Shown: positions 20,196-38,726, numbered from the stretch's first letter. The stretch: 64,000 nt of DNA from Candidatus Nealsonbacteria bacterium (GCA_003551425.1 PUMP01000059.1:1-64000), one strand, 5' to 3'. Notes: generated by a model not told the origin, from the sequence alone. Made by a program: numbers and translations.

Positions 20196-20621
20196 TTAAA
20201 ATGTTTCAATACGTGAGCTCACCTTGCCGAGCCTACTGCCTTTTTTTAATTTTTTCTCTTCCTCCCTTTCTTCTGTTTTTTTCTTCTTTGGGAGAGACCT
20301 CTTCTTTCTTTCTGTAGATATTTTAACCGGTTTTTCTTTTTTTTCCCATACATACTCTTTTGAAGCTGTAGAGAAAGCAATATAGTTTTTAATGTAGTTA
20401 GAAAGAGGCATTTCGTTAATTTTTAAAAAAGCCAAAGCGACTCCTCCTGTAGCCACAAAGGCGGAAATGAAAAAGAAAAGGAGCAAACTTACTTCTCTTA
20501 ATATAAGATAAAGGAAAAAGATAATAAAAGCCGCGATTCCAAGCGGGATAATTTGTTGGAAAGTAGCAGGGCCCACTATTTTTGCCTCATGCTCAATATT
20601 CCTTGGCACTTTATATCTCAT
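20196..20621 (-). CDS. Small two-TM membrane protein, VirB3/PrgI-like T4SS component
   Basis: 141 aa with two adjacent TM helices after an N-terminal 'KVPRNIEHEAKIVGPATFQQ'. It sits immediately upstream of VirB4 as VirB3 does, and has a lysine-rich C-terminal tail. Confidence 0.4.
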   Translation of the reverse strand: MRYKVPRNIEHEAKIVGPATFQQIIPLGIAAFIIFFLYLILREVSLLLFFFISAFVATGGVALAFLKINEMPLSNYIKNYIAFSTASKEYVWEKKEKPVKISTERKKRSLPKKKKTEEREEEKKLKKGSRLGKVSSRIETF

Positions 20622-20749
20622 ATGATCATTTTAGCACAAAGGTAATCCAAGTAAAGAGGGAGGGTGAAGCTTGACAAATCTGCCATTTCATGATAGAAAA
20701 AAAGCGGAGTATGCACACTACAAAATTGTTATATAAGGAGGTTTTTAAA

Positions 20750-21991
20750 ATGATATGGTGGATTCTTTTTGTACTGTTGTTGGTAGGAATCTTTCTCCTC
20801 TCTTTCTATTCTCTCCGGTATTCTTTTGGAAAGGTGGAAGAAGGGACGACCAGGGTTATTATGAGCCTTGGGCAGTTTGATAACATCAAAATGGTCTGGA
20901 GGGGCCATTTTATGGATGAAGACTTTAACATTCTAAGAGAAGAAGAGGACGATGGAAGAAGAAGAAAAAAGATATCTGGTCGAATTTTTGGCGGATTCTT
21001 CTTTATGGGGCTTTATCCTTTTAAGAAGATCCATAGCTATTCTATTACGTGGAGTAGTAGCCATGGTCGAAAAGAAGGAAAAGCTGGGATAAGTGAAGAA
21101 TTCAAGAAGATAAACCTCAAGCCCGAGGTTTATAGGTCGCTGGTAGAGAACGCTGAGACAAAAGAAAGGGTGCAATGCAAGGTTGAATACCTTGTGACTC
21201 TCAGAATTAATAATCCCTACAGATTTTTATTCGTTAGCCCTGATAACTCCCTAGAAGAAGCGTTGTCCCAAATAGATACACTGATACGTGACCTGGTTGG
21301 AAGTTATTCCTTTGAGAAGCTGTATACGCTTGAAAGACAGAAGATTTGGGAAAAAGTAAAAGACAGGAAGCTGTTACGAGTGTCCCAGCAAGATCCGGGG
21401 ACGCTTCAAAAGTGGGGAATAGGAGTAGCGAAAGAGGGGATTACCTTTATAGAGGTCTCCCCCATGGACAAGAGAATTACCGAAGCTCTTGCAGAGGAGC
21501 AAAAAGAAGACTTCGAGGCGAAAGGAGCCTCGAAAAGGATAGCAAAGAAAGTAGTATATATGATGGCAGAAGGTGCTGGCAAGACTCCTAAGCAAATCGC
21601 AAGAGATATAGAAAGCGATGCCGAGACGAGAAATAAGTTCTTTTCTTGGTGTCAAGAAATGGTAAGGAAAGATCTTGCCATGAGATCCGGTAGTTATATT
21701 AATGTTGACGTGGAAAGTGGAGGCGAGCTGGAGAAAACAATTCTTAATACAATTGCGGGCTTTCTGAGAATGCCACAGGGTCCGCAAGGAAAAGGAAATG
21801 AGCAAGGAGGCGTAGAAAAAGAAGAGAAGAAAAAGCCTAAGAATGATGTCGATGCAGACGAAGATGAAATAGATGAAGAAGAGCAAGAAAACGAAGAAAG
21901 CAACAAAGAAGAAGAGGGCTCCGAGGTTTCATACAGCCCGGAACTTATGAAAAGAAATAGAGAGAGAATACTAAAAGAACAGGGCCGTTAA
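20750..21991 (+). CDS. SPFH/band-7 (stomatin/prohibitin-like) membrane protein with an acidic C-terminal tail. The start was set at the ATG preceded by GGAGG.
   Basis: N-terminal TM 'IWWILFVLLLVGIFLL'. 'GTTRVIMSLGQF', 'KVEYLVTLRINNPYRF' and 'WGIGVAKEGITFIEVSPMDKRITEALAEEQKE' fit the SPFH fold pattern. A D/E-rich tail follows. Confidence 0.5.
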   Translation: MIWWILFVLLLVGIFLLSFYSLRYSFGKVEEGTTRVIMSLGQFDNIKMVWRGHFMDEDFNILREEEDDGRRRKKISGRIFGGFFFMGLYPFKKIHSYSITWSSSHGRKEGKAGISEEFKKINLKPEVYRSLVENAETKERVQCKVEYLVTLRINNPYRFLFVSPDNSLEEALSQIDTLIRDLVGSYSFEKLYTLERQKIWEKVKDRKLLRVSQQDPGTLQKWGIGVAKEGITFIEVSPMDKRITEALAEEQKEDFEAKGASKRIAKKVVYMMAEGAGKTPKQIARDIESDAETRNKFFSWCQEMVRKDLAMRSGSYINVDVESGGELEKTILNTIAGFLRMPQGPQGKGNEQGGVEKEEKKKPKNDVDADEDEIDEEEQENEESNKEEEGSEVSYSPELMKRNRERILKEQGR

Positions 21992-22479: not shown

Positions 22480-24699
22480 TTAATCATCTCTTAGTTCTTC
22501 AGCTTCTATATATGCAGGATGAGCTGTGATAATGTTAAAGTTATGTCTTCTTTGCCTGCGTGCCTCTTCGGGGAAGTCATTAAATGTTTCTATAAGATTC
22601 CTTAATCCCTTATAATTATATTCTGCTACTGCTTGGATGCTGCGAGAATTCTGAGTAAGAGCGTCAGCAACGGCTTCGTTTCTGTAAGCGGAAGGAATCA
22701 TGTTTCTTTGTTCTCCGGGGCTCATATTTAGCACCAGATTAACATCATCTCTGTATCGATCGTCTAATCGCCTTTCCAGTTCTGTTTGAATTATTCTGTT
22801 TCTTTCCTCTTCAGATTGCCCTTGCCTCTTCGGGGTTTCTCGCGCAACATCTTCCCAGGTAGGTTGTTCTTCTGCGTGCGGGGCTATTTTTTTGTATTGA
22901 CTTATTTGATTATTTACATTTCTTAGTGCGTTTGCTTGGCTTCTTTGCCTTCTATTCATCTCTCTTTGAATTCTATCATTGTAATCGGCATTTGATTCTC
23001 CTGTATTTTGTGGAAAATCTCCTTGTACCGCTCCCCTGGTGATGTTTTCTTGAGATGCTTCAACTTCCCTTCTTTTCCTTTGTAATTTCTCTATTTCGTC
23101 TCCAATAGCTAATCTAGCTGCATTCTCTTGATATTTATCACCGGTATCAGCAATTTTTTTCAAATCACCAGCCTTTCCCCCGGCCCTTCTTATTTGATCC
23201 GGTCTTTGGAACTCTGACGGGGTTTTCTTTGCCTCTTCTTCGGCTTCACTTTTTCTTCTTTTTGCCCACCTGGCAAGAGATGGTGCTGCTAATTTTGCTA
23301 TCGGCATCTTTCTCATTCGTTCCGCCATGTTTTCTACACCTTCCGGCACATTGGCTCTTTCTTGTGATCCCTTAGGAACAAAGCTATGCTTGAAAGCTCG
23401 TCCTGCAGTTCCGCTAATTGAAGCACCAAATGTTTTGGCCTGGCTTATTGCGGCATCTACTCCTGCCGGTATAAACTTCTTTCCGAAAAAGAGAATTGTA
23501 ATGAAGTAAATTAAAAGAATGACGTAATAAACAATCCCGCTATCCAGGAAGATTCGTGATATGCCAACAACCCACCCTGTCTCTCCTAGCTCTGCTTCTC
23601 TAATAGAGCCTTCAAGAACATCCACCATTCCTACCATATTAAATCCCAAGATAAGCAGAAAGGCGAAAACGATACCAGCAAAGAGCCACTGCAAAAGGCT
23701 TCTTAGCCATAACTCAAAATAGCCGTAGATCTTTGTGCCGGGAAAAATCAAACAGATGAAGGCAAGAGGAGCAATAACCGCAAGTATTTGTATGATAAAG
23801 ATTCTTACAACGAAAATCACAAAGAAGAGAAAGAAAGCGCCGGCAAGAAGCATGTTTATCAGTCCCTGAACAAACATTGATAATATCTCACCAAACCAGA
23901 TGAATCCGGCTGCTATAACCGCAAATTGCACCGCTACGGATAAATAAGGGATTAGCATTGCTAAGGAAAATACCCCTAGAGCAACCGCAAATCCAATTAT
24001 TTGTTCTGTTGTACCGGTAAAAAGCGTGTCCATTGATGCAGTAACAAGGTTTGTTGCTTCTTGGGGACCGTCTCTTTCACAGCAACACGGTTCTTCTCCT
24101 TCGCAGAATTGGGGATCTCCAGGGACTGTCCCTGACGGGCACACGCCTTCTCCCGGATAAAATTCTATATGTGTACAATCGGGCTCTATTACAAGTTGCT
24201 CTGAAATAGTGCTAAAGAAAACATTTGAGACATCAATTCCCATTCCTACAAAAACCAAAGAGAAGTTTATAAGCAAGGCGACGCCGATTAGCCTGGGGAA
24301 TGCTTTCTTAAGCCCAAGATTGTCAAACTTTAATATGATAGAGATAGCGATAATAACAAACGCTATGATAAGCAGCATATTAGAGATACCGAGAACAAAC
24401 TCCCATCCTACCTCTATAATTCGATGATCCAAGGTAAGCACCTCCGGTGTGGCTGTAATAATTGACACCAAGTATTCGGTAGCCATCTTTAAGAGCCCGA
24501 AAGAGAGAATTAAAAACAAGAACAAAAATATTGCCAGAGCCAGAATTGGTCCCACTGCTTCAGATAGCCCTTCAAGCTGTTTGTGCCCAAGGTCAAAGAC
24601 AAAGCCATCCGTTATTTTTGGCAATAAAAGAAATAATAGAAAAATAAAGGCAGAAGAGAGCAGCTTTAGCTTTGACTTATATTTTTCCTTTAAAAACAT
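22480..24699 (-). CDS. Polytopic membrane protein, VirB6/TrbL-like, with a Cys-rich extracytoplasmic insert and a long charged C-terminal extension
   Basis: About 10 predicted TM helices in the first 420 aa, a Cys cluster 'GEGVCPSGTVPGDPQFCEGEEPCCCERDG', and a ~300 aa hydrophilic R/E/Q-rich tail. This architecture is typical of VirB6/TrbL/PrgH-like mating-channel proteins. Confidence 0.45.
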   Translation of the reverse strand: MFLKEKYKSKLKLLSSAFIFLLFLLLPKITDGFVFDLGHKQLEGLSEAVGPILALAIFLFLFLILSFGLLKMATEYLVSIITATPEVLTLDHRIIEVGWEFVLGISNMLLIIAFVIIAISIILKFDNLGLKKAFPRLIGVALLINFSLVFVGMGIDVSNVFFSTISEQLVIEPDCTHIEFYPGEGVCPSGTVPGDPQFCEGEEPCCCERDGPQEATNLVTASMDTLFTGTTEQIIGFAVALGVFSLAMLIPYLSVAVQFAVIAAGFIWFGEILSMFVQGLINMLLAGAFFLFFVIFVVRIFIIQILAVIAPLAFICLIFPGTKIYGYFELWLRSLLQWLFAGIVFAFLLILGFNMVGMVDVLEGSIREAELGETGWVVGISRIFLDSGIVYYVILLIYFITILFFGKKFIPAGVDAAISQAKTFGASISGTAGRAFKHSFVPKGSQERANVPEGVENMAERMRKMPIAKLAAPSLARWAKRRKSEAEEEAKKTPSEFQRPDQIRRAGGKAGDLKKIADTGDKYQENAARLAIGDEIEKLQRKRREVEASQENITRGAVQGDFPQNTGESNADYNDRIQREMNRRQRSQANALRNVNNQISQYKKIAPHAEEQPTWEDVARETPKRQGQSEEERNRIIQTELERRLDDRYRDDVNLVLNMSPGEQRNMIPSAYRNEAVADALTQNSRSIQAVAEYNYKGLRNLIETFNDFPEEARRQRRHNFNIITAHPAYIEAEELRDD

Positions 24700-24721: not shown

Positions 24722-26173
24722 TTATTCCCACCAACCTTCTTCGCATGAATATAGTCCCCACAAACCTTCCCAGCAGACATTAATTGTTACATCTTCGGTC
24801 ATTTCAATGTTAGGGATATATCCATCGTTAATAGCGGGATCTCCTTCTTTTGACCATTCGAAAGTTGTTCCCCACCATTCGGAGCCAACCTCATGAAGTG
24901 CTACAATATTACGGTGTTCCGGAATCTCTGTGCGGCATCTATTTCTAGCTTCCACGAACCCGCAATCAATGTACCCATGATGAGGGGGGCGGTGCTTTGT
25001 CTCTATTCTCATAATGTCAAGCTCGATACCCCAGTCATCTTCATCTGCTTCTCCAATATGGCCCCGATAAGGGTTAATGGTCAGAGTAAATGTCTCTATG
25101 CCGTCGGGAAGATCCAGTGGTCCGGAGTAGCACCGATTAGGAGAGCTGTCTCTGCAATAGGTGCGAGAAATCTCTACGGCACCTTCCTCCGGGTCTGTTG
25201 TTCCTATTGCCTCTCTTTCTTGTCTTCTTTCAATCTCCATGCAATCTATTGATCTTCCAAATCCGAAAATTCCTTCCTCCAGATCAACCGTAGGTATTGA
25301 GCCGCGGCTTAATTTTTCACCACAAGCGACTTCTGGAGCTCCAATCTCCCACCAGTTTGCTGTTGCTTCATAAAGATCGGCTATGGAAGTTCCTCCTTCT
25401 TTATATAAGCCCCTGGGGTCCGGTCTCATTTTCTCACCGGGACCAAACCTTTCCGCCTGATGGCTGCCAATTCCTATTATATCTCCTCCTTGCCCCATTG
25501 TTTGTTCTATTTCTACCGGAGGACTATATCTCTGATACCCAAGAGATATGCCGTCTTCTAGTTGTTTCATTTCATCCGGCGGTATTGCCGTATATCCCTT
25601 TACCGATTTTGGAGAATGATCTTCGTGTATTTCATCGGCTTCTAGTTGTATGTTGTATATATCCTTGTTTCTTATATAAACCGTGGCAATGTGATCTTCA
25701 TGGTTTTTCTTGGCGTAAAACTCCATAATATCAACGGGTTCTCCTTCAAGGTCTGCGAGACTTAGATCGGAAATATAGACTTCGTCATGAATGCTAAAAG
25801 TTACGGGAGAGATTCTTACCAGTTCGGGGTTTATCATGCTTAATATTACCCAAGAAGATAAAAGCAATACTAGCCCTATTACTGCGGACTGGATTCTTGA
25901 CAAAGCATCTTGCATCACGGCGGGCTTTCCGGCAGAGATTGTGTATTGAAATCCGGAGAATACCAGGATGCCAAATACCAGCAATATGCCGATAATAATT
26001 CCCCACTCGTAAAAGTATGCGATAAGTTCGTGAAGTGGCATATCGCGCCGGAACTCTATGGTGGGAGAGTCTGGCCAAGCAACTTCCGTATTGGCAATAG
26101 CCACGGAGAAAGACGCAAAAAATAAAAAGAGAGAAGAAAAAAGCGTTTTTAAATTAAGTATTTCTTTTTTCAT
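24722..26173 (-). CDS. Secreted/membrane protein with an N-terminal signal peptide plus a two-helix pilin-like module, followed by a ~380 aa Cys/His/Trp-rich extracellular domain
   Basis: The signal peptide is followed by 'HELIAYFYEWGIIIGILLVFGILVFSGFQY...AVIGLVLLLSSWVILSMINP'. This two-helix module is similar to the C-terminal modules of the 26874-29972 and 41710-42222 proteins. Confidence 0.5.
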   Translation of the reverse strand: MKKEILNLKTLFSSLFLFFASFSVAIANTEVAWPDSPTIEFRRDMPLHELIAYFYEWGIIIGILLVFGILVFSGFQYTISAGKPAVMQDALSRIQSAVIGLVLLLSSWVILSMINPELVRISPVTFSIHDEVYISDLSLADLEGEPVDIMEFYAKKNHEDHIATVYIRNKDIYNIQLEADEIHEDHSPKSVKGYTAIPPDEMKQLEDGISLGYQRYSPPVEIEQTMGQGGDIIGIGSHQAERFGPGEKMRPDPRGLYKEGGTSIADLYEATANWWEIGAPEVACGEKLSRGSIPTVDLEEGIFGFGRSIDCMEIERRQEREAIGTTDPEEGAVEISRTYCRDSSPNRCYSGPLDLPDGIETFTLTINPYRGHIGEADEDDWGIELDIMRIETKHRPPHHGYIDCGFVEARNRCRTEIPEHRNIVALHEVGSEWWGTTFEWSKEGDPAINDGYIPNIEMTEDVTINVCWEGLWGLYSCEEGWWE

Positions 26174-26865
26174 GCTTCGTTTTCTGTTTTAATCTCTATG
26201 GAATCCATTATATGGTTTACTTGTTCAGAAAAATCTTCCCAAAGACTGGAGATTATGAAAACGGAAACCATGTATCTTTCGTTATCAATATGTATTATTT
26301 GTTCTTTTGCTCGAACCTCTCCTATCGGGCTTTTATACTTTGTTTTAAATATTTTTCCATGTTTTGTTTCTTCTTCTTCCAAAATCTCACGGGAAGTATC
26401 TTTCACAAAAATATCTTCCGTTTTTTTCAATAAATCACCTTCTTCCGCACCATCTTCTCTTAAAACAGTCATTCCCGCCTTTGCCTCAAAAGGCCCTACA
26501 AGAAAAGAGGTAAAAAGGATTTCAATGTTCTCCTGATCCAAGTCTTCTATATCTTCTACAGATTCCCAGTGCGAAGGGTATGCTACTCTTATTTTGTCAT
26601 TTGGCCCTGTAAATTCTTCATATTCTATCTCTTCGGCGCTTTTTAGTTCTTCGTTATTTAGGCTTCGATATTCATCCAGATAATCTCCGCTAATAATGTC
26701 TTCCATGGAAGGAAGAGAATATTCCGAAGTGGCTATTTCTCTTTCCGGAAACCTGGGGTGAGTAACGCCCTCTTTATTCCCGGTTTGCTGGCTGTGAAAA
26801 TAGGTAGAAAGAACCAGGAAAGCTATCATCAAGAAGCTTATTATAACTATTTTTTTATCCGACAT
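26170..26865 (-). CDS. Hypothetical N-terminally membrane-anchored acidic protein
   Basis: N-terminal TM 'IVIISFLMIAFLVLSTYF'. It is co-directional and overlaps its neighbours by 4 nt. Confidence 0.4.
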   Translation of the reverse strand: MSDKKIVIISFLMIAFLVLSTYFHSQQTGNKEGVTHPRFPEREIATSEYSLPSMEDIISGDYLDEYRSLNNEELKSAEEIEYEEFTGPNDKIRVAYPSHWESVEDIEDLDQENIEILFTSFLVGPFEAKAGMTVLREDGAEEGDLLKKTEDIFVKDTSREILEEEETKHGKIFKTKYKSPIGEVRAKEQIIHIDNERYMVSVFIISSLWEDFSEQVNHIMDSIEIKTENEA

Positions 26866-26873
26866 TTTTATGA

Positions 26874-29800
26874 TTATAATTCAATTTGCCACCAAAATCC
26901 ATATATGCTTGTATCATATCCTATCATAGGCATTCCCATTGTTAAAATAAGCCATCCGAAGAAAAGGATGACAAATCCGATTCCTACCGCTCTCCAAACA
27001 GCCTTTACTCTTGCCAAGACCTCTGTTCCCAAGGAAGGAGAAAGGTAAAATATTGCCCCTGTTGCCAGTATCATTAATCCAATAGCGACGGGAAAGAGGT
27101 TCCAAAGAACAAAATCGATTAATACTTTAAATAATATCAATAAATGCTTGGGCTGGCAAGATTCTCTTTCATTCCAGTCGGTATCCGGGCTGTTATATGT
27201 CCTGCCACAAGGAACAAGGCCGACGCCGTCAACCTCTACTTCGTAGTAATTGAAAGACCACCAGGGAGAAAAGTCTCCGCTTTCTTCGCACTCGCTGTCA
27301 AGGCAAGATTTTACTCTCCACTCATAATCTCCCAGGTCAAATAACCTTAAAAAGAAATTATTATCGGAGATAATCTCTTTTTCTTTCTCTCCGTCGGGAA
27401 AAATAACTTCGTATTTATAATAATTTGCTCCCCTAATAGCGTTCCAAGAAACATCGATATTTCTTTCTTCGGTAAAAATCTCGGCGTTATCTTGAGGGCT
27501 GGGGACAGAAGGAGCGTAAAGAGTAAAGGTGGTGAACTCTACCGGAGGAGTAAAGAATCCTCCGCAATAATCGGTGCCCGGATCGGCACAAGTTTCCACT
27601 GTCCAAGAATAAGATTCTTCTGTTTTAATTTTCGGATAGTCAAGACGGATCCTTGTCGTTGAAGTATGACTTCTTTTTATCTTATCTCCTTCTTTGTTAA
27701 ATAACTCGAATACATAGGATTTTGCCCCCGAAACAGCTCCCCACTCTGCGTTAAGGGGAATTAAAACTTCTTGGGCTTTGTTATAAGGAGTTGCGGTTTT
27801 ATTTAAGTCGGGAGGACGTCCGGTAGTGGTAAATTTATGCCAATCCGTCCAAGTGTCGTTACAATCGTCTCCGTTTTCGTCGTAGCAAGACCTGAGCCGC
27901 CACCTGTAATCTGTGTTAAGAGCAAAGTCATCTATGTCTATCCTGGTATTGGTATCTTGAAGGTGTCTTTCTATTGTTCCTCCTTCTCCGTCCATTCTTT
28001 CCAGCTGAAAATAATAGGAGTGAGCACCAAATGGCTTGTTCCACTCAAAATAAGCGCTGGGATGAATGGCGATAGGATTTCTCCCCTCTGGATCGTTAAG
28101 AGGAGAGAGTCCGGAGGGGTTCTCAAGACCCCCGGAAACAATAAACTTCCATATTTGACCATAATCGGTGCAGTCTTTTCTGGAGTGGTCTTTACAAGCG
28201 GCGATTTGCCATCCGTATATCTCTCCTTTTTCATCGAATAGTCCGACATTTTTATTAATTAATTTTGTAGGAGGGTCTCCTCTATGGATAGGAACAAGAC
28301 TAGGATCGTGAATGGGGACAGGTTCGCAAAGACCTCCCAAGCGAACACGGTCGGGATGACACTCCAGTTCACCGCCTATTTCTTTATAGGCATAAAGCAA
28401 ATAAGCCTTATAATCTTCCTCTCTTTCATGGTCACACCAAGTTGGGTTTGCGTCTTTAAAGTCTATAGGGTTATGATGAGTCCCCGCCATACTTTCCGGA
28501 TCTACCCATCCGGAATCATAAGGGGAAAGCGGTTCGGGAGCCTCGTTGGTTTGAAATCCCGGCCAACTGCTCCACTTTCCGCAGTCTGTACCATCAGTGC
28601 TACAACAAGCCTGTACTTTCCAGTTATGGGTGTCGCCGGGCCTAAGAAGGCAGCGGTCTGCATTGAAGTTATTACGGGAAACCGTGGTTTCAAGAGCTTT
28701 CCCCGAAGAGCTTGAGGTTAGCTTATAGGAAGAGCCTGCTATCTTTTCACTATTATCTTTGTTTAAGGCAGCTAAATCTATCCTTGAATCGGAAGGAGAT
28801 TTCTCTAGAAGAAGATCGTTTTCGTAAGGATCTTCCATTTCGCCGTTATAGAGATCTTCTGGAGGAGTCTCTTTATCTGATACATATTTTGGCACATAGC
28901 CTGGAACATAATAAGTTGCTCTCCCCATGTTGCTATGATTCCTAATATAATTAATAGTTTCTGCAAAGACTAGCTGATTACGATCAAGATATTTAAGAGG
29001 ATCGTCATGTCCACGATCAACACCACCGCTCCAGCAAGAACCCAAACAAACATCAAGATGCAAATGAACTCCAGTAGAGGCTCCGGTAGTTCCCATTCTT
29101 CCGATTTGTTGTCCTTGCTCTACTTTATCGCCTGGACTAACGAACATACTATGGAGATGAAGATACTGCGTATATAGATTATCTCCACTGCCCGTTATAT
29201 CACCGTGATTGATTCTTACAGTATTTCCCGCGCCTCTTCCAGGGGTACCGATATATCTTGCTATAGTTACTTTACCTTCTGCTGCTGCATATATAGGTGG
29301 ATTAGTAAATCCTGATTGAACAAAGTCAGTCCCAAGATGAAAATGGCCAACATCCATGTCCCAGCCACTGCGATCTTGGGCAAAATTAGAAGTAACTCTT
29401 ATATTTTTTAATTCTAATGGCCAAGCAAGAAGTCCTTCTTCCGGAGCAGGAGGAGGGTCGCCAATAGGCTGAGAGGGGTCGTCGGGATCGGGATGAAGAA
29501 AATCTCTGGTGGTATTGTCTATCTTTATGTTATAAGAGCTTGGTCCCGTATCTTCATTCCATCCTGAGACATTGTCCCAAGCAAGAGCTACGGGAAGATA
29601 TATGTCATCATTTCCTTCATAAGGATAATCGGACTGAAGAATTGTTGTTGCTGGATTGGCGTAATACTCTTCGTTTTGCGGAGCATCTAAACACTCACCG
29701 GCACAGGAGCAATCATTTTTTGTAGCATCACACTTTTCCCAAGAGTTGCAATTTTCTTTAGTTACCCAACGAGTATTACCGCATCCATCTTCTTGCTGTC

Positions 29801-29972
29801 TCTGCAATGTTCCTCCGCAGCTACCAACACAGCGCGTGTTATTGGTATTACTCCAGCTGGGCTCACACTCTTCGGCATTAGCCAAGTTTATCCCCAAAGC
29901 AAGGAAGGCGGTTATTATTAAAAAAAGAGAAAATAATAAGAGAGTTTTTATGTTGGCTGGCTTAAATGACAT
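26874..29972 (-). CDS. Large secreted M23-family (LytM-type) peptidoglycan metallopeptidase. Architecture: Cys-rich N-terminus, M23 domain, three Fn3-like repeats, and a C-terminal two-helix pilin-like membrane module.
   Basis: Signal peptide present. M23 motifs 'HLGTDF', 'GKV...GNTVRINHGD....YTQYLHLHS..V..GDKVEQGQQIGRMGTTGASTGVHLHLDV'. Three ~90 aa repeats (YYFQLE...YRWRLRSCYDENGDDC; YVFELF...YSWTVETCADPGTDYC; YKYEVI...YEWRVKSCLDSECEES). The C-terminal 'VGLVPCGRTYNSPDTDWNERESCQ...' plus two TM helices is shared with the 41710-42222 protein. Confidence 0.7.
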   Translation of the reverse strand: MSFKPANIKTLLLFSLFLIITAFLALGINLANAEECEPSWSNTNNTRCVGSCGGTLQRQQEDGCGNTRWVTKENCNSWEKCDATKNDCSCAGECLDAPQNEEYYANPATTILQSDYPYEGNDDIYLPVALAWDNVSGWNEDTGPSSYNIKIDNTTRDFLHPDPDDPSQPIGDPPPAPEEGLLAWPLELKNIRVTSNFAQDRSGWDMDVGHFHLGTDFVQSGFTNPPIYAAAEGKVTIARYIGTPGRGAGNTVRINHGDITGSGDNLYTQYLHLHSMFVSPGDKVEQGQQIGRMGTTGASTGVHLHLDVCLGSCWSGGVDRGHDDPLKYLDRNQLVFAETINYIRNHSNMGRATYYVPGYVPKYVSDKETPPEDLYNGEMEDPYENDLLLEKSPSDSRIDLAALNKDNSEKIAGSSYKLTSSSSGKALETTVSRNNFNADRCLLRPGDTHNWKVQACCSTDGTDCGKWSSWPGFQTNEAPEPLSPYDSGWVDPESMAGTHHNPIDFKDANPTWCDHEREEDYKAYLLYAYKEIGGELECHPDRVRLGGLCEPVPIHDPSLVPIHRGDPPTKLINKNVGLFDEKGEIYGWQIAACKDHSRKDCTDYGQIWKFIVSGGLENPSGLSPLNDPEGRNPIAIHPSAYFEWNKPFGAHSYYFQLERMDGEGGTIERHLQDTNTRIDIDDFALNTDYRWRLRSCYDENGDDCNDTWTDWHKFTTTGRPPDLNKTATPYNKAQEVLIPLNAEWGAVSGAKSYVFELFNKEGDKIKRSHTSTTRIRLDYPKIKTEESYSWTVETCADPGTDYCGGFFTPPVEFTTFTLYAPSVPSPQDNAEIFTEERNIDVSWNAIRGANYYKYEVIFPDGEKEKEIISDNNFFLRLFDLGDYEWRVKSCLDSECEESGDFSPWWSFNYYEVEVDGVGLVPCGRTYNSPDTDWNERESCQPKHLLILFKVLIDFVLWNLFPVAIGLMILATGAIFYLSPSLGTEVLARVKAVWRAVGIGFVILFFGWLILTMGMPMIGYDTSIYGFWWQIEL

Positions 29973-30813
29973 TTTTTAGAACTTTGACAAGCAGCTTCCA
30001 TTCTTTTATGCTTAATTTTTCCGCCCTGCTTTTAGGGTCAACACCACTTTCTTTGATCAAAGAATAAAGCTCTTCTTTTTTTATTAAGTTTAGCCCCTTT
30101 TTGCCTTTAATGTCAAACTGGAAGTTAGTTAAGATTTGTTTTCGGGGATGAGAGAATCCCTTTTTAACTATTCGGAAAAAATCTTTTTTGAATTCTTCGT
30201 CAAAGATTTCTTCTTTTGGCGTGATTTTTATAATTGACGACTCTACGGAAGGGGACGGCCAAAAAGAGTTTCTGGAAACATGGGAAACGATCTCGGGCCT
30301 GGCATAGAACTGTACGGAAACGGACAAAACGCTCATATTGGGAGGCTTGGCAATTATTCTTTCCGCGACTTCTCTTTGAACGGTAAGTACAAGAGAGCTA
30401 GGCGGACATCTTTCTTCTAAAAACTTTCTTATTACGGGAGAAGTAATGTAATAGGGAAGATTTGCTACAACCTTGTAGTCTCTGAAAGGGACGGGAAAAC
30501 TTAAAATATCTTCGTGAATTATCTTTATGTTTTCTTTGTTTTTTATGAGATCACGGAGTACCGACACCAGTCTCCTGTCTTTTTCTACCGCTGTAACGCG
30601 CTTTGCTTTTTTTGCCAAGGGGAGAGTAAGAGTTCCGATGCCGGGACCGACCTCAACAACTTCATCTTTCTTTGAAAGATCGGCGCTGTCGCATATTTTC
30701 TTTACGACACTTTTGTCTATGACAAAGTTTTGTCCCAGTGATTTTTTCGGATTTACAAAATAAGAATCAAGAACTTTTTTTAGGTTTTCTTTGTTTGTTA
30801 GGTCTATTTCCAT
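29962..30813 (-). CDS. rsmA: 16S rRNA (adenine1518/1519-N6)-dimethyltransferase
   Basis: 'LGQNFVIDKSVVKKI', SAM-binding 'VEVGPGIGTLT' and 'NLPYYITSP'. Confidence 0.9.
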   Translation of the reverse strand: MEIDLTNKENLKKVLDSYFVNPKKSLGQNFVIDKSVVKKICDSADLSKKDEVVEVGPGIGTLTLPLAKKAKRVTAVEKDRRLVSVLRDLIKNKENIKIIHEDILSFPVPFRDYKVVANLPYYITSPVIRKFLEERCPPSSLVLTVQREVAERIIAKPPNMSVLSVSVQFYARPEIVSHVSRNSFWPSPSVESSIIKITPKEEIFDEEFKKDFFRIVKKGFSHPRKQILTNFQFDIKGKKGLNLIKKEELYSLIKESGVDPKSRAEKLSIKEWKLLVKVLKNVI

Positions 30814-30890: not shown

Positions 30891-31892
30891 TTGAAGAGGA
30901 GGGCTTCGGGTCAAAGTGGCTTTACGATTCCAAAAAGGAGAAATAAAATTTTCCTTGTTTTTGTTTTATCTTTATTTATAGCTGCTTGCCTTACAAATAC
31001 GGAAGATTTCTTTGGCAAAGAAGAACCCAAAGAGGAAAGCTTTGTATCGGACTTTGATTTTTTTCTTTCCTCCGAAAGAGAAGATAGCTCCGAATCAATT
31101 ATATTTACCGACAAGAACACCCTTCTCTCCGGGTCGGCTCCTTACTTTGTGAGCTCGAGGGTGATGGGGGGCGCCGGAGTAAGCCAAAGAAACAATATTA
31201 TTTCTTATAAGGTGGAGGAGGGGGATACTCTTTCAAGTGTTGCCGATAAGTTTGATATTAGCAAAGACACGATACGGTGGGCTAATGACATAAACGGCCA
31301 AGTAAAACCCGGAGAAGAGTTGGTTATTCTTCCCGTAACGGGAGTTATGTATTATGTAGAGTCCGGAGATACTTTATCGGAGGTTGCCGAAATGCATAAA
31401 GCGGAAAGAGAAGAGATAAAGGAGTTCAATAATCTATATGTAGAGGACATTTATCCCGGTGACTTGATAATTATTCCGGGAGGGGAGCGTCCCGCTATTC
31501 CTGAACCTGCGCCTCCGGCACCTTCTACGCAGTTCGTTGCTCCCGCAATAGGGATTGTTACTCAAGGGCCACACCACTATAATGCGATAGACATTGCTAA
31601 TAATTGTGGTAGCCCTATCTATGCGGTACAATCGGGGGTAGTAGTGGAAAGAGCCTATAACACTTGGCCGGCAGGTCACTTCTTAAAAATTGATCATGGA
31701 AATGTGGTGGCAATGTATGCCCACATGCAAAATATGTATGTTGGAGTAGGCGACAGAGTCCATCAAGGACAGCAAGTTGGAACGATGGGGACTACAGGAC
31801 TTTCAACCGGTTGTCATATTCACTTTGATATTCTTTCAAGAAGAATAAGGAATCCTTTTGCTCACATTCCGGTTGGAGGACAGGTAAGATAA
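30891..31892 (+). CDS. Membrane-anchored LysM(x2)-M23 peptidase
   Basis: N-terminal TM. Two LysM motifs ('YKVEEGDTLSSVADKF', 'YYVESGDTLSEVAEMH'). M23 motifs 'HYNAIDIA...GSPIYAVQSGVV' and 'MYAHMQN..V.VGDRVHQGQQVGTMGTTGLSTGCHIHFDI'. Confidence 0.8.
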   Translation: MKRRASGQSGFTIPKRRNKIFLVFVLSLFIAACLTNTEDFFGKEEPKEESFVSDFDFFLSSEREDSSESIIFTDKNTLLSGSAPYFVSSRVMGGAGVSQRNNIISYKVEEGDTLSSVADKFDISKDTIRWANDINGQVKPGEELVILPVTGVMYYVESGDTLSEVAEMHKAEREEIKEFNNLYVEDIYPGDLIIIPGGERPAIPEPAPPAPSTQFVAPAIGIVTQGPHHYNAIDIANNCGSPIYAVQSGVVVERAYNTWPAGHFLKIDHGNVVAMYAHMQNMYVGVGDRVHQGQQVGTMGTTGLSTGCHIHFDILSRRIRNPFAHIPVGGQVR

Positions 31893-33575: not shown

Positions 33576-36455
33576 TTAGAACTTAAAATCTAAATCAGAG
33601 ATGTCCGGAGTTTCTTCCTTTTTCTTTGGAGAAGGGGGAGTCTCTTCTTCCTCCTCTTCCTCTTCTTCCTCTTCCTCTTCTTCATCTTCCCCCTCCTCTT
33701 CAGGCTCTTCTATTTCTTCCTCGCTTTCTTTTGCTTTTTCGTCATTTTCTTCTAATTTTTTTCTGTCCAGTTCTTCTCTATATTTATCTTCTTCCTCCTC
33801 TTCATCTTCTTCCTCCTCTTCTTCTGCCTCTTCCTCTTCTATGTCTTCATCATCATCTAGCACTTCCTCTTCTTCCGGCTCTTCTTCTGTTATTATCGAC
33901 TCTTCTTCCTCTTCGCCCTTTACGGACTGCTCCAGCTCTCCTATCTCTTCTCGAAGCTCCGCTTCTCTTTTTTGAATAAGGTCGAATCCTTGTTTTTCTT
34001 TTTCAATTTCCGCCAATCTATTCTCTAACTTCCATATCTCCTTTTCTTTATCGCGCTTTTCTTCTTCTACCTCCCATCTTTTTTCTTCTACTTTCTTTTT
34101 TTCTCCGGGATCTTCGATGTATTGCTCTTCTTCCTCTATGTCATCCATGCGACTTTTAATTTCTTCTTTGCTCTTCTTCATCTCTTCAAGAGATTCTTTT
34201 ATTTGAGTTTCTTCATCAATTAATTTCTCGCTTTTTTCTTCTATTCTGCCCCTAATTGTTTGTACTCTTTTCAGTTCTTTCTTCTTTTGTTTTGCTTTCT
34301 CTGTCTTCTCTATATTTTCCTCTTTTACCGCAAGAGAACTTTCTTTCTTCTTTAACCTTTCTTCTTCGTTTAGTATTTGCTGGTAATGCAGTTCGGAAGC
34401 GTACAATTGTTCTTCAATCTTTTTAACTCTTTTTTGCAAGCCCCACTTTTCTTTTTCAATATCTCTTCTTTTTTCTTCTATCATCCATCTTTCTTTTTCT
34501 TTTTCCCTCCTTTCTTCTGTAGTTTTGGCTGACGATTCCTCTTTCTCAATCTTCTTTTTCCTGTCTTCTACCTCTTTCTCCCTTTCGAGCGTAATATTTA
34601 ATTTTTCTTGAAGATGATCTTTCTTCTCTTTCGTTTTAGCTGTCTTTAAATCAAGACCCTTTCTTTCCTCTTTGATAGAACTTATTTTTTCTTTTATTTT
34701 TGCTCTTTCCAGTGAGACTTTTACCCTTTTTTCTTTCTGAGACAACTCTTTCCACCTTTCATGAACTCTTTTTTCTTTATTGGAGATTCTCCACTTTCTT
34801 GTGTGTGTTTGGCGGCTTCTTTTTTTTATTTCATTTAATCTTTCCTTGATGTCCCATATCTTTCTTTTAGCCTCTCTTATTTCTTCTTCTACCTCCCATC
34901 TGTTCTTTTCAATCTCACTTTTTTCCTCCGGGTTGTATGCTATTTTTTCTTTTGACTCGATATCATCCCTCTTTCTTTCAATATATCTTTCTTCTTTATA
35001 AGCTTCTTCTAGCTTTCTTTCGCTCACTTTTTCTTTCTGTGAAAGCTTATCTGCCTCAATCTCTAAGAGCTTTCTTTCTTCTCGCAAGTCGTAGAATTGG
35101 TCACTTAACTTTTCTTTTAATAGTTCTATCTTCTCCAAGTGAAGTTCTTTTTTTTGTACCGAGGAAAGAGTTTCATCTTGTAAGCCAATAGCGATCTCCC
35201 TTTCTTTTCTCTTAATATTTCTTTCTCTTTCTCTTTCTTCTTTTCTTTTTTGCAACTCTTCTTCTTTTTTTCTTATAAGCTTCTCTTGTTTATTGATTTT
35301 CTCTAACCCTTTTTCGGTGTCACTTAGCTCTTTTTCCATGTCCCATCTCTCTTTCTCTATGTTTCTTCTTTTTTCTTCTATACTCCACCCTCTTTCGGTT
35401 AATTCCTTTTCTTCGCCCGTCCCCTTTGCAATGCTCTCCTCTTTTTTAATACTGCTCTTTTTACTCTCTATCTCTTTTTCTTTCTCTTTTATTTCTTTTA
35501 ATTTATCTGAAAGCTCTATTCTTCTTGCAAGAAGATTCTCTTTCTCTTCTTTAAGAGATTCTTTTTTTTCGGTTATTTTTTCTTCGAGATCACCTGCCGG
35601 TATTTTTTCTTCTTTCTCTAGAGGAGTCTTTGTTTCTTCCCTTGCTTTTACTTCTCTTATCTCGTCTTCTTTTTCTTGCAGCTTTTCAATCTCTTCTCCA
35701 AGCTCTTCCAATCGATTGGTTGCTTTTTCAATCTTTTCTCTTGCAGCGGCAACCTCTTCTTCTTTTTGCCACCTTTCTTCTTCTATTTTTTTTCTTTCGT
35801 CTTCTATCTTCCACCTTTCCTCCTTAAGTTTCTTTTTTTTGGAAAAGTCTTTTTCTATTTCTTCTTTTTTTTCCAGGTCTCTTTCTTTTTTTTCAATTGT
35901 TTTTTCTTTCTCTTTTATTTCTCTTAGCCTTTCTTTTATTTTTTTCTCCTCGCTAACCAATGATTTTTTTTCTTTAAGAAGAAGATTCCCTTCCTTTTCT
36001 TTCTTCTTTATTTTTTCTTCAATTTGTTCTCCCTCTGTTTCTTTTTGGTCTTTTTGATCTTTTTCAAGTTTTTGCTCTTCTTCTTTCTTCTTTTTCTTAA
36101 GCTCTTCTCTCTCTTGCCTTAAAGAGCTTATTTGTTTTTCTACTTCTTCAACCTTACTTTCCCAGTTCCAACGCTCTTTTTCGATGTCTTTTCTTTTGTC
36201 TTCAACTCTCCATCTTTCTTCGCTTATTTTCTTTTTTTCTTTCTCGTCTTTTGTTTTTTCTCCCTGCTCTTCTATCTCTTTTTCTTTATCCTCTATCTCT
36301 CTTTCTTTTTTGGTTATAAGGTTGAGGCTTTTTTTAATTTGCTCTTTCTTTTCCGTAGCGCTGGCAATGTTAACTTCTAGCTCTTCAAGCTTTTTTTCCA
36401 GCTCTTTTAATTTATTGTTTTTTTCTTCCAAGTTATTATTGTTTGAATTTATCAT
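33576..36455 (-). CDS. Giant (959 aa) E/K-rich coiled-coil repeat protein with a poly-acidic C-terminal tail
   Basis: There is no TM or signal. The motif 'E[EK]RW.[IV]E[DE][KE]R[RK].IEKE.W..E' occurs at least 6 times (for example EERWRVEDKRKDIEKERWNWE, ERWKIEDERKKIEEERWQKE, KERWMIEEKRRDIEKEKWGLQ). The tail is 'EEEEEEEEEEEEEETPPSPKKKEE'. Confidence 0.6.
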   Translation of the reverse strand: MINSNNNNLEEKNNKLKELEKKLEELEVNIASATEKKEQIKKSLNLITKKEREIEDKEKEIEEQGEKTKDEKEKKKISEERWRVEDKRKDIEKERWNWESKVEEVEKQISSLRQEREELKKKKKEEEQKLEKDQKDQKETEGEQIEEKIKKKEKEGNLLLKEKKSLVSEEKKIKERLREIKEKEKTIEKKERDLEKKEEIEKDFSKKKKLKEERWKIEDERKKIEEERWQKEEEVAAAREKIEKATNRLEELGEEIEKLQEKEDEIREVKAREETKTPLEKEEKIPAGDLEEKITEKKESLKEEKENLLARRIELSDKLKEIKEKEKEIESKKSSIKKEESIAKGTGEEKELTERGWSIEEKRRNIEKERWDMEKELSDTEKGLEKINKQEKLIRKKEEELQKRKEERERERNIKRKEREIAIGLQDETLSSVQKKELHLEKIELLKEKLSDQFYDLREERKLLEIEADKLSQKEKVSERKLEEAYKEERYIERKRDDIESKEKIAYNPEEKSEIEKNRWEVEEEIREAKRKIWDIKERLNEIKKRSRQTHTRKWRISNKEKRVHERWKELSQKEKRVKVSLERAKIKEKISSIKEERKGLDLKTAKTKEKKDHLQEKLNITLEREKEVEDRKKKIEKEESSAKTTEERREKEKERWMIEEKRRDIEKEKWGLQKRVKKIEEQLYASELHYQQILNEEERLKKKESSLAVKEENIEKTEKAKQKKKELKRVQTIRGRIEEKSEKLIDEETQIKESLEEMKKSKEEIKSRMDDIEEEEQYIEDPGEKKKVEEKRWEVEEEKRDKEKEIWKLENRLAEIEKEKQGFDLIQKREAELREEIGELEQSVKGEEEEESIITEEEPEEEEVLDDDEDIEEEEAEEEEEEDEEEEEDKYREELDRKKLEENDEKAKESEEEIEEPEEEGEDEEEEEEEEEEEEEETPPSPKKKEETPDISDLDFKF

Positions 36456-36467
36456 GAGCCAAAAACC

Positions 36468-38726
36468 TTAAGAAATTACTTTTTGAAGTTCGTTTGTTAT
36501 TTTTTTTGCAATTTCCGCAAACCTTTCTTCAAGAACTTCACTGTCTTTCTCTTTCTCCATCATTGTTTCTGTCTTCTTTTTTTCTTTCTCCAGAGAGATT
36601 AACTGTTCCTTGTCTTTAAAGCTTTCTTTCTCTTTGCTTAATTTATCTTCTTCTTCCGATATTTGCTTGTACTGTGATTCTATTTTTTTCTGAAGGTTTT
36701 CCATTTCTCTTATCTTTTCCTGGAGCTTCCATTTTAAGCTCTCTATTTCTCTTCTCTTGTCTTCTAGCTGCCATCTCTTCTTTGTCTCATCCTTTCTTTC
36801 TTTTGAGTTAATATCCATTGTCTCTATTTTATCTTCCATCCATCTTATTTGTTCTTCAACCTCGCTCTCATTTTTCATTATATCTCTTAATTTTTCTTCA
36901 CTTTCTTTCTTCCTCTCTTGTAGTTGCCTTTTTTTCTTATCAAGAATTTCTCTTTTTTTCTTAAGCTCTTCTTCCCTTTCTCTTATCTTCTCCCTTCTTC
37001 CCTCCATCTCCATCCACTCCAAAAGCTTAGAGGCAAGATCTTTTTCTTTATCGTGCATATTTTCTTTTTCTTCCATCAATCTATCATATCTTTTCTCCAT
37101 CTCTTTCCTTTCTTTTGTAACATTGTTTAATTTTTCTTGGATGTCCAAAGATTCTTTTTCCACGGCTCTTCTTTTTTCTCCTATTTCCCACCTTTTCTTT
37201 TCCATCTCTCTTACTTCTTGAGGGTCCTTTGCTGTTCTTTCTCTTTCTTCGATATCTTCTTTCTCTTTCTTCATCTGTTTTTCTTTTTCATAAACTTCGT
37301 TGAGCTCTCCTTTGATCTCTCTTTCTTTTTCCAAGGGAGCCTTTAAATCTCTCTTAATCTCTTTCTTTTTTTCTATCGTCTCACAGATAGCGCCTAAAAG
37401 ATCTATTCTGTTTATGACTATCTGTTTTCTGTATCGGGGGTCTCTTAAAAGAAACTCTTTTCTTTTAAGGGAAATGAAGCGCTTTTTCTCTTCAATCTGC
37501 TCTTTCTCTTTTGCTCTTTTTTCCTTTTCTTTGTTTAGGGCATCTTCTGCGGCGGTGGTTCTTTCTTGAAAAGCTTTTTCATTTTGCCGTATCTCTTTTT
37601 TAAGTGACTCTATTTTTTCTTTTAGAGAAGTACTTTTGCCTTCAATTATCTTTATTTTCTCTTTTGTTTTTTTAATTTTTTCCTGCCACTCCCAAGCCTC
37701 TTCTTTGACTTGTTTCTTTTTCTCTTCGATCCTCCATCTTTCACTTTCAAGTTCCTCTAGCTCTTTGCTATCCTCTGTTTTCCCCGTTCTTTCTTTTATG
37801 TCTAAAAATCTTTCCTTTATGTTTTTATCTACTTGGATAATTTTCTTTAACTTGTCTTTTGCTCTTTTTTCACGAGCTTGAAGCAGTCCTATTATTTGTT
37901 CGTAAAAATTATTTTTCTTTTCTAGAAATCTTATTTTGCTTTGAGGTATGAGGATAGAAAGCTTAAGACCCAAAGCCTCTCTTTCCACCTTTATTATCTC
38001 GGCTTTTCTCTTTGCTCTTTCTTCTTTTATATCACAAAGGAGTTGCCTTAACTCAAGAGATTGTATTCCTTTTTTAATTTGAATTATTTTTTCTTCTATT
38101 TCCCAGCTTATTCTACTCGCTTCTCTTTCTTTTCTGCTTATCTCTTCTTCTTTTCTTTCAAGGTCTTCCTGTCTTTCAGGGCTTTGTGCCGCCACTTTCA
38201 TCTCTTTTATCTTTTCTTTTTGCGTCTTTATCTTTGTTTCCTTTGATTTTACAACGCCTTTTTTCTCTTCCAGCTTTATAATGTTCTTTTTTGCAAAGTT
38301 ATTCTTTAGCTCGAGAGATTTTCTTTCTTTTAACACCTCTTCCAGTAGCTGGTTGTTTCTTTCTTGCTCTTGTCTTTTTTCTTCAATTTTTCTTTTGGTT
38401 GCTTCTATTTTATCCTTTACGGACTCTTTTATCCCTTGTCTTGTTTTTTCAATATTTTTTATCCACTCTTCTTTTTCTTCCTTTTCAATCTTTCTTATTT
38501 TATTTTCTTCCTCCAGTCTTGCTTGCCTTTTTTCTTCCTCTTTTCTTTTTTCTTCTTCTCTTATTATTTCTTCTTCTTTCTTTTTGTCTTCTTCACTTTT
38601 CTTTTGCGTTCCTTTCTGCGGGGGTTTGGATTGTTGAGCCACGTCTTTTTTTCCTCCTGTCTTGGCAAGTAAAAGGTCCTTTTTCATCGTCCTAATCTCT
38701 TGTGTGGTGTCTTTATTTTCTTCCAT
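36468..38726 (-). CDS. Giant (752 aa) E/K-rich coiled-coil repeat protein, paralogue of the 33576-36455 protein
   Basis: Same composition and the same W-containing motif ('SERWRIEEKKKQVKEEAWEWQEKI', 'KKRWEIGEKRRAVEKE', 'KKRWQLEDKRREIESLKWKLQEKI'). It lies directly downstream of pnp on the same strand. Confidence 0.6.
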   Translation of the reverse strand: MEENKDTTQEIRTMKKDLLLAKTGGKKDVAQQSKPPQKGTQKKSEEDKKKEEEIIREEEKRKEEEKRQARLEEENKIRKIEKEEKEEWIKNIEKTRQGIKESVKDKIEATKRKIEEKRQEQERNNQLLEEVLKERKSLELKNNFAKKNIIKLEEKKGVVKSKETKIKTQKEKIKEMKVAAQSPERQEDLERKEEEISRKEREASRISWEIEEKIIQIKKGIQSLELRQLLCDIKEERAKRKAEIIKVEREALGLKLSILIPQSKIRFLEKKNNFYEQIIGLLQAREKRAKDKLKKIIQVDKNIKERFLDIKERTGKTEDSKELEELESERWRIEEKKKQVKEEAWEWQEKIKKTKEKIKIIEGKSTSLKEKIESLKKEIRQNEKAFQERTTAAEDALNKEKEKRAKEKEQIEEKKRFISLKRKEFLLRDPRYRKQIVINRIDLLGAICETIEKKKEIKRDLKAPLEKEREIKGELNEVYEKEKQMKKEKEDIEERERTAKDPQEVREMEKKRWEIGEKRRAVEKESLDIQEKLNNVTKERKEMEKRYDRLMEEKENMHDKEKDLASKLLEWMEMEGRREKIREREEELKKKREILDKKKRQLQERKKESEEKLRDIMKNESEVEEQIRWMEDKIETMDINSKERKDETKKRWQLEDKRREIESLKWKLQEKIREMENLQKKIESQYKQISEEEDKLSKEKESFKDKEQLISLEKEKKKTETMMEKEKDSEVLEERFAEIAKKITNELQKVIS

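Follow-up and report, generated by a model that had tools for sequence, protein, structure and literature searches.

What a bacterium might do with a peptidoglycan-cutting enzyme that shares one polypeptide with a pilin-like membrane module is the question raised by a locus of Candidatus Nealsonbacteria bacterium. The locus lies in a stretch of 64,000 nucleotides (GCA_003551425.1 PUMP01000059.1:1-64000; the whole stretch is referred to below as the window), and its central element is an open reading frame (ORF) on the minus strand (26874-29972, ATG start) that encodes 1032 residues. The source organism is an ultrasmall bacterium of the Patescibacteria, probably one of Ca. Nealsonbacteria (class Paceibacteria). 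On balance, and with some reserve, we lean toward the view that the encoded protein is a "decorated pilin" of a chromosomal, relaxase-less Patescibacterial type IV secretion system (T4SS), that is, a VirB2-like minor pilin or anchor with a swappable host-envelope head, here an M23 peptidase.

The protein (P0001) comprises a signal peptide, a Cys-rich domain, a first Fn3-like repeat with an M23 peptidase nested in it, four further Fn3-like repeats and a two-helix pilin-like module; all of these elements lie on the minus strand. The Sec-type signal peptide covers residues 1–33 (29874-29972), with hydrophobic residues 5–34, an equivalent N-terminus in the ortholog described below and a predicted cleavage site between ANA and EE. 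It is followed by a Cys-rich β domain (residues 34–100; 29673-29873), for which AlphaFold2 (AF2) predicts strands within residues 46–90 with predicted local distance difference test (pLDDT) values of 70–95. Nine cysteines fall within residues 36–94, in agreement with the Cys-rich N-terminus reported in an initial annotation of the window. Identity as a type IV pilus pilin was ruled out: such pilins start with a class III signal peptide that has a prepilin-peptidase site and with one N-terminal hydrophobic helix, whereas this protein has an ordinary Sec signal (ANA followed by EE) and a hydrophobic module of two helices at its C-terminus.

The public protein collection contains the identical sequence once, as an unnamed entry. 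In the GTDB species genomes, a scan revealed a full-length ortholog of 1046 residues (L001:3229-6369) in a metagenome-assembled genome of Ca. Nealsonbacteria, which is 46% identical end to end and syntenic, with the same gene order as in the window. Of the 28 cysteines, 23 are conserved between the two proteins, and the C-terminal module is their most conserved region (70% identity, compared with 46% overall and 65% for the adjacent KsgA). In an exhaustive HMMER scan with residues 395–1032 as the query, the number of cluster representatives was 1693 when E-values up to 1e-3 were accepted, 553 for values up to 1e-10 and 210 for values up to 1e-30. For most of the 149 best representatives, the alignment begins in the second half of repeat 1 and runs through to the C-terminal end of the representative. 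The C-terminal module was present in 143 of the 149, and the region of residues 1–190 was detected in 47. An artefact of gene fusion or assembly was ruled out, since the architecture recurs in the ortholog with 46% identity and in these 143 representatives. Judged by the synteny, the retained cysteines and a C-terminal module better conserved than KsgA, the fusion is real and under selection.

The C-terminal module (residues 913–1032; 26877-27236) consists of a GLVPCG motif, a Cys922–Cys939 loop, a helix (941–977), a basic turn, a second helix (983–1016) and an aromatic tail, with the basic residues R987, K989 and R993 located in the turn and at the start of helix 2. When modeled alone by AF2 it formed two long helices (pLDDT 81). 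It makes up the last 120 residues of a 1032-residue protein, as against 129–170 residues in all for its standalone relatives (P0005, P0007, L003, L004). The initial annotation had stated that the module also occurs as a standalone protein (P0005; 170 residues; 41710-42222, minus strand) and had proposed comparing it with the N-terminus of a further protein (P0006; 483 residues; 24722-26173, minus strand). Both alignments are significant in BLASTP comparisons: the former shows 28% identity (E = 9e-9) and extends over VGLVPCG and both cysteines of the pair, and the latter has E = 7e-4. When the window ORFs of 50 residues or more were all searched with a hidden Markov model (HMM) of the family module, it picked just these two pilin-like proteins, with E-values of 7e-17 and 3.9e-6, respectively, and all others scored E > 0.5, including an eight-transmembrane-helix protein and the PrgI-like protein. 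Because these other strongly hydrophobic proteins are not matched, the similarity reflects homology rather than hydrophobic composition.

The pilin-like nature assigned to the module in the initial annotation is borne out at the level of the family. When 24 modules of family members were searched on their own, 13 matched the candidate phyla radiation (CPR) T4SS_pilin family PF18895 (best E-value, 1.3e-6), with no competing family; of 47 full-length members, 10 matched it. Among the relatives in the window, the 483-residue protein matches it above the curated cutoff (1.5e-6) and the 170-residue protein with 2.5e-3, and small GLVPCG relatives in other genomes match it above the curated cutoff (7.5e-9) along with weak matches to PF04956 TrbC (9e-4, 5e-3). 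Assignment of the module to PF18895 is supported at this level, through the relatives and the family profile. A PDB profile search with the module gave chance-level hits only (E ≥ 0.8) and no match to solved conjugative pilins (TrbC/VirB2 proper; F, T and RP4), and in fold searches it was indistinguishable from any helical hairpin. Across 46 family members its mean identity to the query was 41.5%, compared with 28–37% for the stalk repeats, and that of the disulfide loop preceding the helices was 52%. A plain membrane anchor is not expected to be the most constrained part of a protein, which argues that the module makes specific contacts.

At the other end of the protein, the initial annotation had recognized a canonical M23 catalytic domain with HxxxD and HLH motifs. 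Residues 211–308 (29049-29342) match Pfam Peptidase_M23 (PF01551) with E = 3.4e-21 and 75.7 bits against a cutoff of 28.7, and they align with solved M23 enzymes, Pgp3 of C. jejuni (6jmx) being the best match at 7e-14, followed by ShyA, LytM, zoocin A and lysostaphin. The motifs align with LytM-type catalytic residues: the zinc-binding and catalytic positions of Pgp3 are occupied by H212-LGT-D216, H272 and H303-L-H305, and all five catalytic and zinc residues (H212, D216, H272, H303, H305) are kept in the ortholog. The NCBIfam matches include the peptidoglycan endopeptidase models Pgp3, MepM, ShyA and ShyC. With the catalytic residues intact in both proteins, the domain is probably an active endopeptidase and not a degenerate domain of the EnvC/NlpD type. 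Neither Pfam nor NCBIfam gave a match to an SLT or CHAP domain in the 1032-residue protein.

Between the enzyme and the membrane module, the initial annotation had described three Fn3/Ig-like repeats; their Fn3-like character stood, and their number rose to five. Five copies of the motif [YFWH].W.[VLI]..C are present (residues 449, 586, 689, 788 and 883). A repeat HMM seeded with the three canonical repeats (616–715, 716–814 and 817–908) detected the second halves of two more, at residues 421–473 (independent E-value, iE, 8e-7) and 582–610 (iE 6e-5), and the same two partial repeats in the ortholog. HMMs were needed here, as internal repeats were not found by self-BLAST of the protein. The canonical repeats 3–5 (residues 616–715, 716–815 and 816–912; 27237-28127) each have a conserved Cys pair, and repeat 2 (481–615; 28128-28532) is expanded to 135 residues with extra cysteines, its tail (582–612) being matched by the repeat HMM.

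Repeat 1 is split. A broader repeat profile built from 141 family repeats placed its model positions 11–33 on residues 116–139 and positions 33–93 on residues 414–474. The second half of the repeat (424–480; 28533-28703), which ends in W.V..CC....C, was matched by the repeat HMM over positions 33–93 (iE 2.3e-10). When this half was joined to the first half (residues 101–160, 'LPVALAWDNVSGW...SYNIKID'; 29493-29672), the resulting chimera of residues 101–160 and 424–480 gave one contiguous match to HMM positions 11–93 with a score of 46.5, so the repeat is interrupted by an insert. In this insert of 263 residues (161–423; 28704-29492), the M23 domain is preceded by a Pro-rich linker and followed by a Ser-rich one. 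Among the 59 family representatives in which both halves of repeat 1 were detectable, the flanks are adjacent (gap ~0) in about 33 and lie 86–657 residues apart at the same site in 22. The M23 domain is therefore not the separate N-terminal part that had been annotated; as far as the HMM matches and flank comparisons tell, it is nested within the first Fn3 domain, the one farthest from the membrane, where it occupies a loop. Judged by how the strands follow one another in the canonical repeats of the AF2 model, this loop is probably C–C'.

The AF2 model of residues 424–910 shows β-sandwich repeats with pLDDT of about 90 (about 70–92 for the β structure of repeat 2), and Foldseek matched the stalk model to tandem FnIII arrays in the PDB with E-values of 1e-14 to 1e-10. 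Of 47 family members, 24 matched PF25788 Ig_Rha78A_N and one matched fn3; in the repeat region of the 1032-residue protein itself, the sole Pfam match was a sub-threshold one to ChitinaseA_N. In the family alignment, an invariant Cys pair is present in each repeat, and W512, C513, W588, C593 and C601 of repeat 2 are invariant or nearly so. The Cys pairs fit an extracellular, disulfide-braced rod. The same Cys-pair Fn3 repeat also builds other large proteins, as it was found in 8–18 matched stretches in six giant proteins of 1240–3417 residues (P0100, P0107, P0119, P0133, P0138 and P0148), all of which are without the pilin module.

The family comparison changes how the enzyme should be viewed. 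M23 was present in 4 of the 149 best representatives, besides the window protein, its ortholog and two metagenome loci; most representatives have no recognizable hydrolase, and many have no insert at all. With M23 this rare and the stalk plus pilin module forming the conserved unit, wall hydrolysis is, by this distribution, a lineage-specific cargo function and not the core function of the family. At the same insertion site in Fn3-1, two members (P0010 and P0029) carry a Peptidase_C39_2/C70-like cysteine peptidase after a similar 'PPP.P.EG' Pro-rich linker, another (P0025) carries about 500 residues of LPxDFL leucine-rich repeats, and others carry Cys-rich helical segments. Elsewhere in the family, P0064 has an N-terminal β-helix (Pel9A-like) head of about 970 residues, and other members have an N-terminal GH5 cellulase head. 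The survey of fused N-terminal domains suggested in the initial annotation thus returned M23, C39-like, leucine-rich, β-helix and GH5 heads, or none. Comparison of the insertion sites shows that this loop of the membrane-distal Fn3 domain can hold different modules, of which M23 is one.

The T4SS-like channel that had been noted nearby is a real T4SS operon. The start of the stalk gene shares 11 nucleotides with the end of ksgA (29962-30813), and the minus-strand order from there is ksgA, the stalk gene, and genes for a 231-residue transmembrane protein, the 483-residue protein, a 739-residue protein with eight transmembrane segments, a 136-residue basic protein, a PrgI/VirB3-like protein, a 209-residue TraC-like protein and VirB4, with dnaA 1.7 kb past VirB4. 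This order is repeated in L001, L006, L007 and L008; in L005, the contig stops at the family gene, and the conserved upstream genes are visible there. Fifty metagenome loci were retrieved via the module, using a 5-sequence module alignment. In 12 of the 12 that have at least 7.9 kb of downstream flank, VirB4 is encoded downstream on the same strand, and in those with a shorter flank the expected nearer genes are seen. Comparison of these loci shows the family gene to be the first gene of a T4SS operon, in a fixed position.

Several products of the operon can be assigned. VirB4 (17745-19562, minus strand) matches P-loop_TraG (1.4e-24), AAA_10 and DUF87, and the PrgI/VirB3-like protein (20196-20621, minus strand) matches Pfam PrgI (6.7e-11); the TraC-like protein (19564-20193, minus strand) is labeled from its homologs in L006–L008. 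The 739-residue polytopic protein (22480-24699, minus strand), for which hydropathy predicts eight transmembrane segments, has no Pfam match; its position is conserved in 37 of the 50 loci, and it is a candidate VirB6-like channel subunit. The 483-residue protein has its PF18895 module at the N-terminus and a C-terminal extension of ~360 residues; most related loci encode it as well, as the second gene after that of the stalk protein. It is a mirror image of the stalk protein, with the signal peptide and two transmembrane helices first and the Cys-containing extension after them. The conserved 231-residue protein immediately downstream of the stalk gene (26170-26865, minus strand) has an N-terminal transmembrane segment and is encoded after the family gene in L001 (6379-7065), L006, L007 and L008 and in half (25) of the 50 metagenome loci; the proteins of the window and L001 gave faint PsbP/PsbP_2-like matches (E = 0.097 and 0.007). 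The standalone GLVPCG pilin, a candidate major subunit, is encoded outside the virB4 operon, ~12 kb away and beside rpsO-NYN-pnp, a placement kept in L005 (1-165) and L006 (179-742). An SPFH/Band 7 gene (20690-21991, plus strand) lies inside the operon on the opposite strand, between the PrgI-like and 136-residue genes; at the comparable place, L006 has an unannotated 488-residue minus-strand gene.

The usual upstream neighbors of the family gene are ksgA and a divergently transcribed gene for a LysM-LysM-M23 peptidase, which in the window adjoins the operon (30891-31892, plus strand) and is kept in L001, L005, L006, L008 and many metagenome loci. This second peptidase could serve remodeling of the cell's own wall. 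Between its catalytic core and the nested M23 there is 45% identity over 83 residues, no more than with unrelated M23 proteins and too little for an origin of the nested domain by duplication of the adjacent gene to be deduced.

Patescibacterial T4SSs have been described as MPF-FATA-like systems, usually without a relaxase and often located near dnaA with ksgA nearby, with VirB2-like pilins (PMC12102498). The window system fits this description, as its operon lies near dnaA and a scan of the larger ORFs in the window revealed neither a relaxase nor a coupling protein. The window is chromosomal, with dnaN, dnaA, class A penicillin-binding protein (PBP), tyrS, pnp, rpsO, nusA, infB and Mur ligase genes. 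The T4SS is essential in S. epibionticum (PMC10633639; PMC12857230) and is needed for the epibiotic growth of the sole genetically tested Patescibacterium, its role in Saccharibacteria being described as 'completely unknown' (PMC11665869).

These observations can be assembled into a mechanism for the proposed decorated pilin. The signal peptide and the disulfide-rich ectodomain point to export of the protein via Sec. Its C-terminal VirB2-like hairpin would insert with both ends outside and the basic turn inside, as in VirB2-type pilins, and the five disulfide-braced Fn3 domains would form a rigid stalk, 15–20 nm long if typical Fn3 dimensions apply, that carries the Cys-rich domain and the M23 endopeptidase at its distal tip. 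Through the hairpin, the protein may join the T4SS as a subunit present in few copies or at the tip, assembled together with the standalone GLVPCG pilin and the C-extended 483-residue pilin; alternatively, the hairpin may be a membrane anchor beside the channel. In VirB2-type pilins, both termini face the outside of the filament, so that both an N-terminal extension, as in the 1032-residue protein, and a C-terminal one, as in the 483-residue protein, could be displayed at low copy or at an end. The M23 head would cut the peptide cross-links of peptidoglycan where the T4SS meets a wall, most likely that of the host, and so clear a path for the T4SS.

A stronger form of the proposal, which we regard as tentative and rather doubtful, holds that the stalk proteins are tip or minor pilins of a T4SS pilus whose VirB2-type module polymerizes, and that an exchangeable "drill bit" in the distal Fn3 loop sets the host range by envelope chemistry.

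Several points weigh against the decorated-pilin interpretation. The window's own module shows no match to PF18895 at E ≤ 10, and its link to that family therefore goes via its relatives and the family profile. The Patescibacterial pilins are themselves predicted subunits, of systems with the 'potential to elaborate conjugative pili' (PMC10633639, PMC12857230), so the word "pilin" is itself a prediction. An N-terminal extension of 900 residues would clash with dense helical packing, and at most sparse or tip incorporation would be possible. Finally, AF2 confidence is low in the M23 region (pLDDT < 50), as most of the aligned family members are without M23, and the evidence for nesting of the enzyme in Fn3-1 is accordingly that of sequence.

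Of the rival explanations, the one that survives best, although we consider it unlikely, is that the protein is a self-wall hydrolase, an analog of VirB1, PrgK and TraG of pIP501 that would sit in the producer's membrane and open its own peptidoglycan for T4SS assembly. A peptidoglycan hydrolase is encoded within the T4SS operon here as it is for the VirB1/PrgK/TraG-type enzymes, this being the classical arrangement in monoderm-type T4SS operons, and the organism does make peptidoglycan, with genes for a class A PBP (11431-13293) and a Mur ligase (55501-56763) in the window. The rarity of M23 and the lack of a recognizable hydrolase in most family members speak against such a role, as does the location of the enzyme far from the membrane, at the distal end of five Fn3 domains. 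For the cell's own wall the conserved LysM-M23 protein beside the operon is the more obvious candidate, and leucine-rich, β-helix, GH5 and C39-like heads make little sense in own-wall remodeling. The variety of heads and the separate LysM-M23 gene make a host-facing role the more likely one.

We find it improbable that the protein is a polyprotein, or pro-pilin, cut just upstream of GLVPCG into a pilin of normal size and an enzyme-bearing stalk that is set free, in soluble or wall-bound form. The mature N-terminus of standalone relatives practically coincides with GLVPCG, which comes right after the signal peptide (as in P0007, where ...SFA precedes NGEEGLVPCG), so that the fusion junction coincides with a natural pilin N-terminus, and VirB2/TrbC pilins are known to be proteolytically processed. 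Cleavage at this point is disfavored by the residues preceding GLVPCG, which are not conserved across the family, and by the standalone protein of the window, which has 29 extra residues ahead of the motif without a recognizable site; no dedicated peptidase was identified in the operon.

About as improbable, in our estimate, is a general surface adhesin or envelope protein in which the module is a mere anchor and the link to the T4SS is one of co-expression near the origin and not of physical contact. Bacterial adhesins typically have a stalk of tandem Fn3 domains with a distal part that varies, the six giant proteins have the same Fn3 repeat in the absence of the module, and fold searches cannot tell the module from any helical hairpin. 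Simple anchors, however, are not expected to be the best-conserved part of their proteins, above the housekeeping KsgA; moreover, the module shares ancestry with the PF18895 pilins encoded at this locus, and the gene order with VirB4 is kept in every testable locus. Least of all do we favor a non-catalytic M23 that would bind rather than cut peptidoglycan, as a regulator or binding domain like EnvC, NlpD or SpoIIQ: the NlpD, ActS and SpoIIQ models are among those to which NCBIfam detects weak similarity, but the five catalytic and zinc-binding residues are all in place, in the ortholog as well, and the best matches are the active endopeptidases Pgp3, ShyA, MepM and LytM.

The decorated pilin can be compared with several known systems. 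The closest are the Patescibacterial VirB2-like pilins and pilin arrays (PF18895; Wang et al. 2023, PMC10633639; Quinonero-Coronel et al. 2025, PMC12102498), which share with the module described here a hydrophobic two-helix hairpin with a basic turn, location in or beside a virB4 operon near dnaA, the presence of several divergent paralogs per locus and, for family members, the match to PF18895. The described pilins are treated as small proteins and are encoded in arrays of 2–11 pilin genes, whereas here the module is the C-terminal 12% of 1032 residues, has its own sub-family signature (GLVPCGR..DNP.TPWNERE.CQ.KH) and is attached to a five-domain stalk and an enzyme. Predicted 'type IV secretion system pilins' domains have also been listed, without further analysis, in highly expressed extracellular proteins of archaea-parasitizing Paceibacteria (Kuroda et al., PMC10936435).

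As peptidoglycan hydrolases of Gram-positive-type T4SS operons, PrgK of pCF10, TraG of pIP501 and the VirB1 family form a second point of reference. These hydrolases have an N-terminal membrane anchor, and PrgK also has a LytM/M23-type domain. Their SLT and CHAP domains act on the donor's own wall, whereas the stalk protein lacks SLT and CHAP domains, is anchored C-terminally by a pilin module and holds its enzyme, an optional M23, at the end of the stalk.

Large functional domains are also carried by VirB5 at the tip of the T-pilus, by minor pilins of type IV pili such as CofB and TcpB and by phage tail fibers and spikes with depolymerase heads. With these the stalk proteins share, by analogy, a conserved assembly module and a variable, target-facing head, enzymatic in some and binding in others, on a constant shaft; their modules differ in not being VirB2-type hairpins, no kinship of sequence or fold is expected, and filament assembly is hypothetical here.

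The Pam pili of CPR (bioRxiv 10.64898/2026.03.03.709456) are similar as CPR-specific surface filaments that have Ig-like domains and are implicated in host contact. They differ in relying on donor-strand exchange with chaperone/usher-like factors and in having homologs predominantly in Saccharimonadia and Microgenomatia, whereas the proteins of the stalk family have a membrane hairpin at their C-terminus and are encoded in the virB4 operon. Identity with the Pam pili was ruled out, as theirs is a different, donor-strand-exchange system.

Other features of the window are recorded for completeness. Two genes (33576-36455 and 36468-38726, both on the minus strand) encode Glu/Lys-rich low-complexity proteins of 959 and 752 residues with no Pfam match, and their DNA is strongly skewed in composition (AT skew of about -0.55); in L005 and L006, unnamed large ORFs likewise lie between pnp and a DksA/TraR-type zinc-finger gene. 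Also present are genes for an ELP3-like radical-SAM/GNAT protein (60033-61628, minus strand) and a T2SSE-family ATPase, probably of type IV pilus machinery (6080-7381, plus strand), and an ORF with a short proteasome-subunit-like match (44467-45402, plus strand; PF00227, 1.1e-5).

M23 peptidases, Fn3 stalks, Patescibacterial T4SSs, pilin arrays and M23-containing VirB1 homologs in Patescibacteria are already described. The family of fusions between a pilin module and a long stalk, its fixed position as the first gene of the operon and the role of one Fn3 loop as the place where different enzymatic or binding domains are slotted in were not found in the open-access papers and preprints searched or in the source annotations. 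The view of the initial annotation that the domain fusion is undescribed is consistent with that literature; the fusion is, however, not a one-off, since the 210 representatives found at E ≤ 1e-30 share the stalk and the module. Word-indexed homology searches with the whole protein and with 2- and 24-sequence module alignments returned just the protein itself, M23-only hits and short 'hypothetical protein' fragments. As a caution, such searches made a family of at least 210 cluster representatives seem an orphan. The Fn3 loop that serves as a cargo slot provides, in addition, an example of domain nesting.

For Patescibacterial T4SSs, no PrgB-like adhesin has been detected (PMC12102498). As the product of a conserved first gene of the operon that joins a T4SS pilin module to a stalk with wall-cutting, polysaccharide-cutting or binding heads, the stalk protein is a concrete candidate for the factor, for contact or penetration, that is still missing from these systems. 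This proposal predicts that the type of head tracks the type of host envelope, that the M23 head cleaves peptidoglycan of the host type and that display of the protein depends on VirB4. If the drill-bit reading is true, the M23, C39-like peptidase, GH5, β-helix lyase and leucine-rich binder heads would be its bits, and the family would provide a host-range determinant for episymbiosis.

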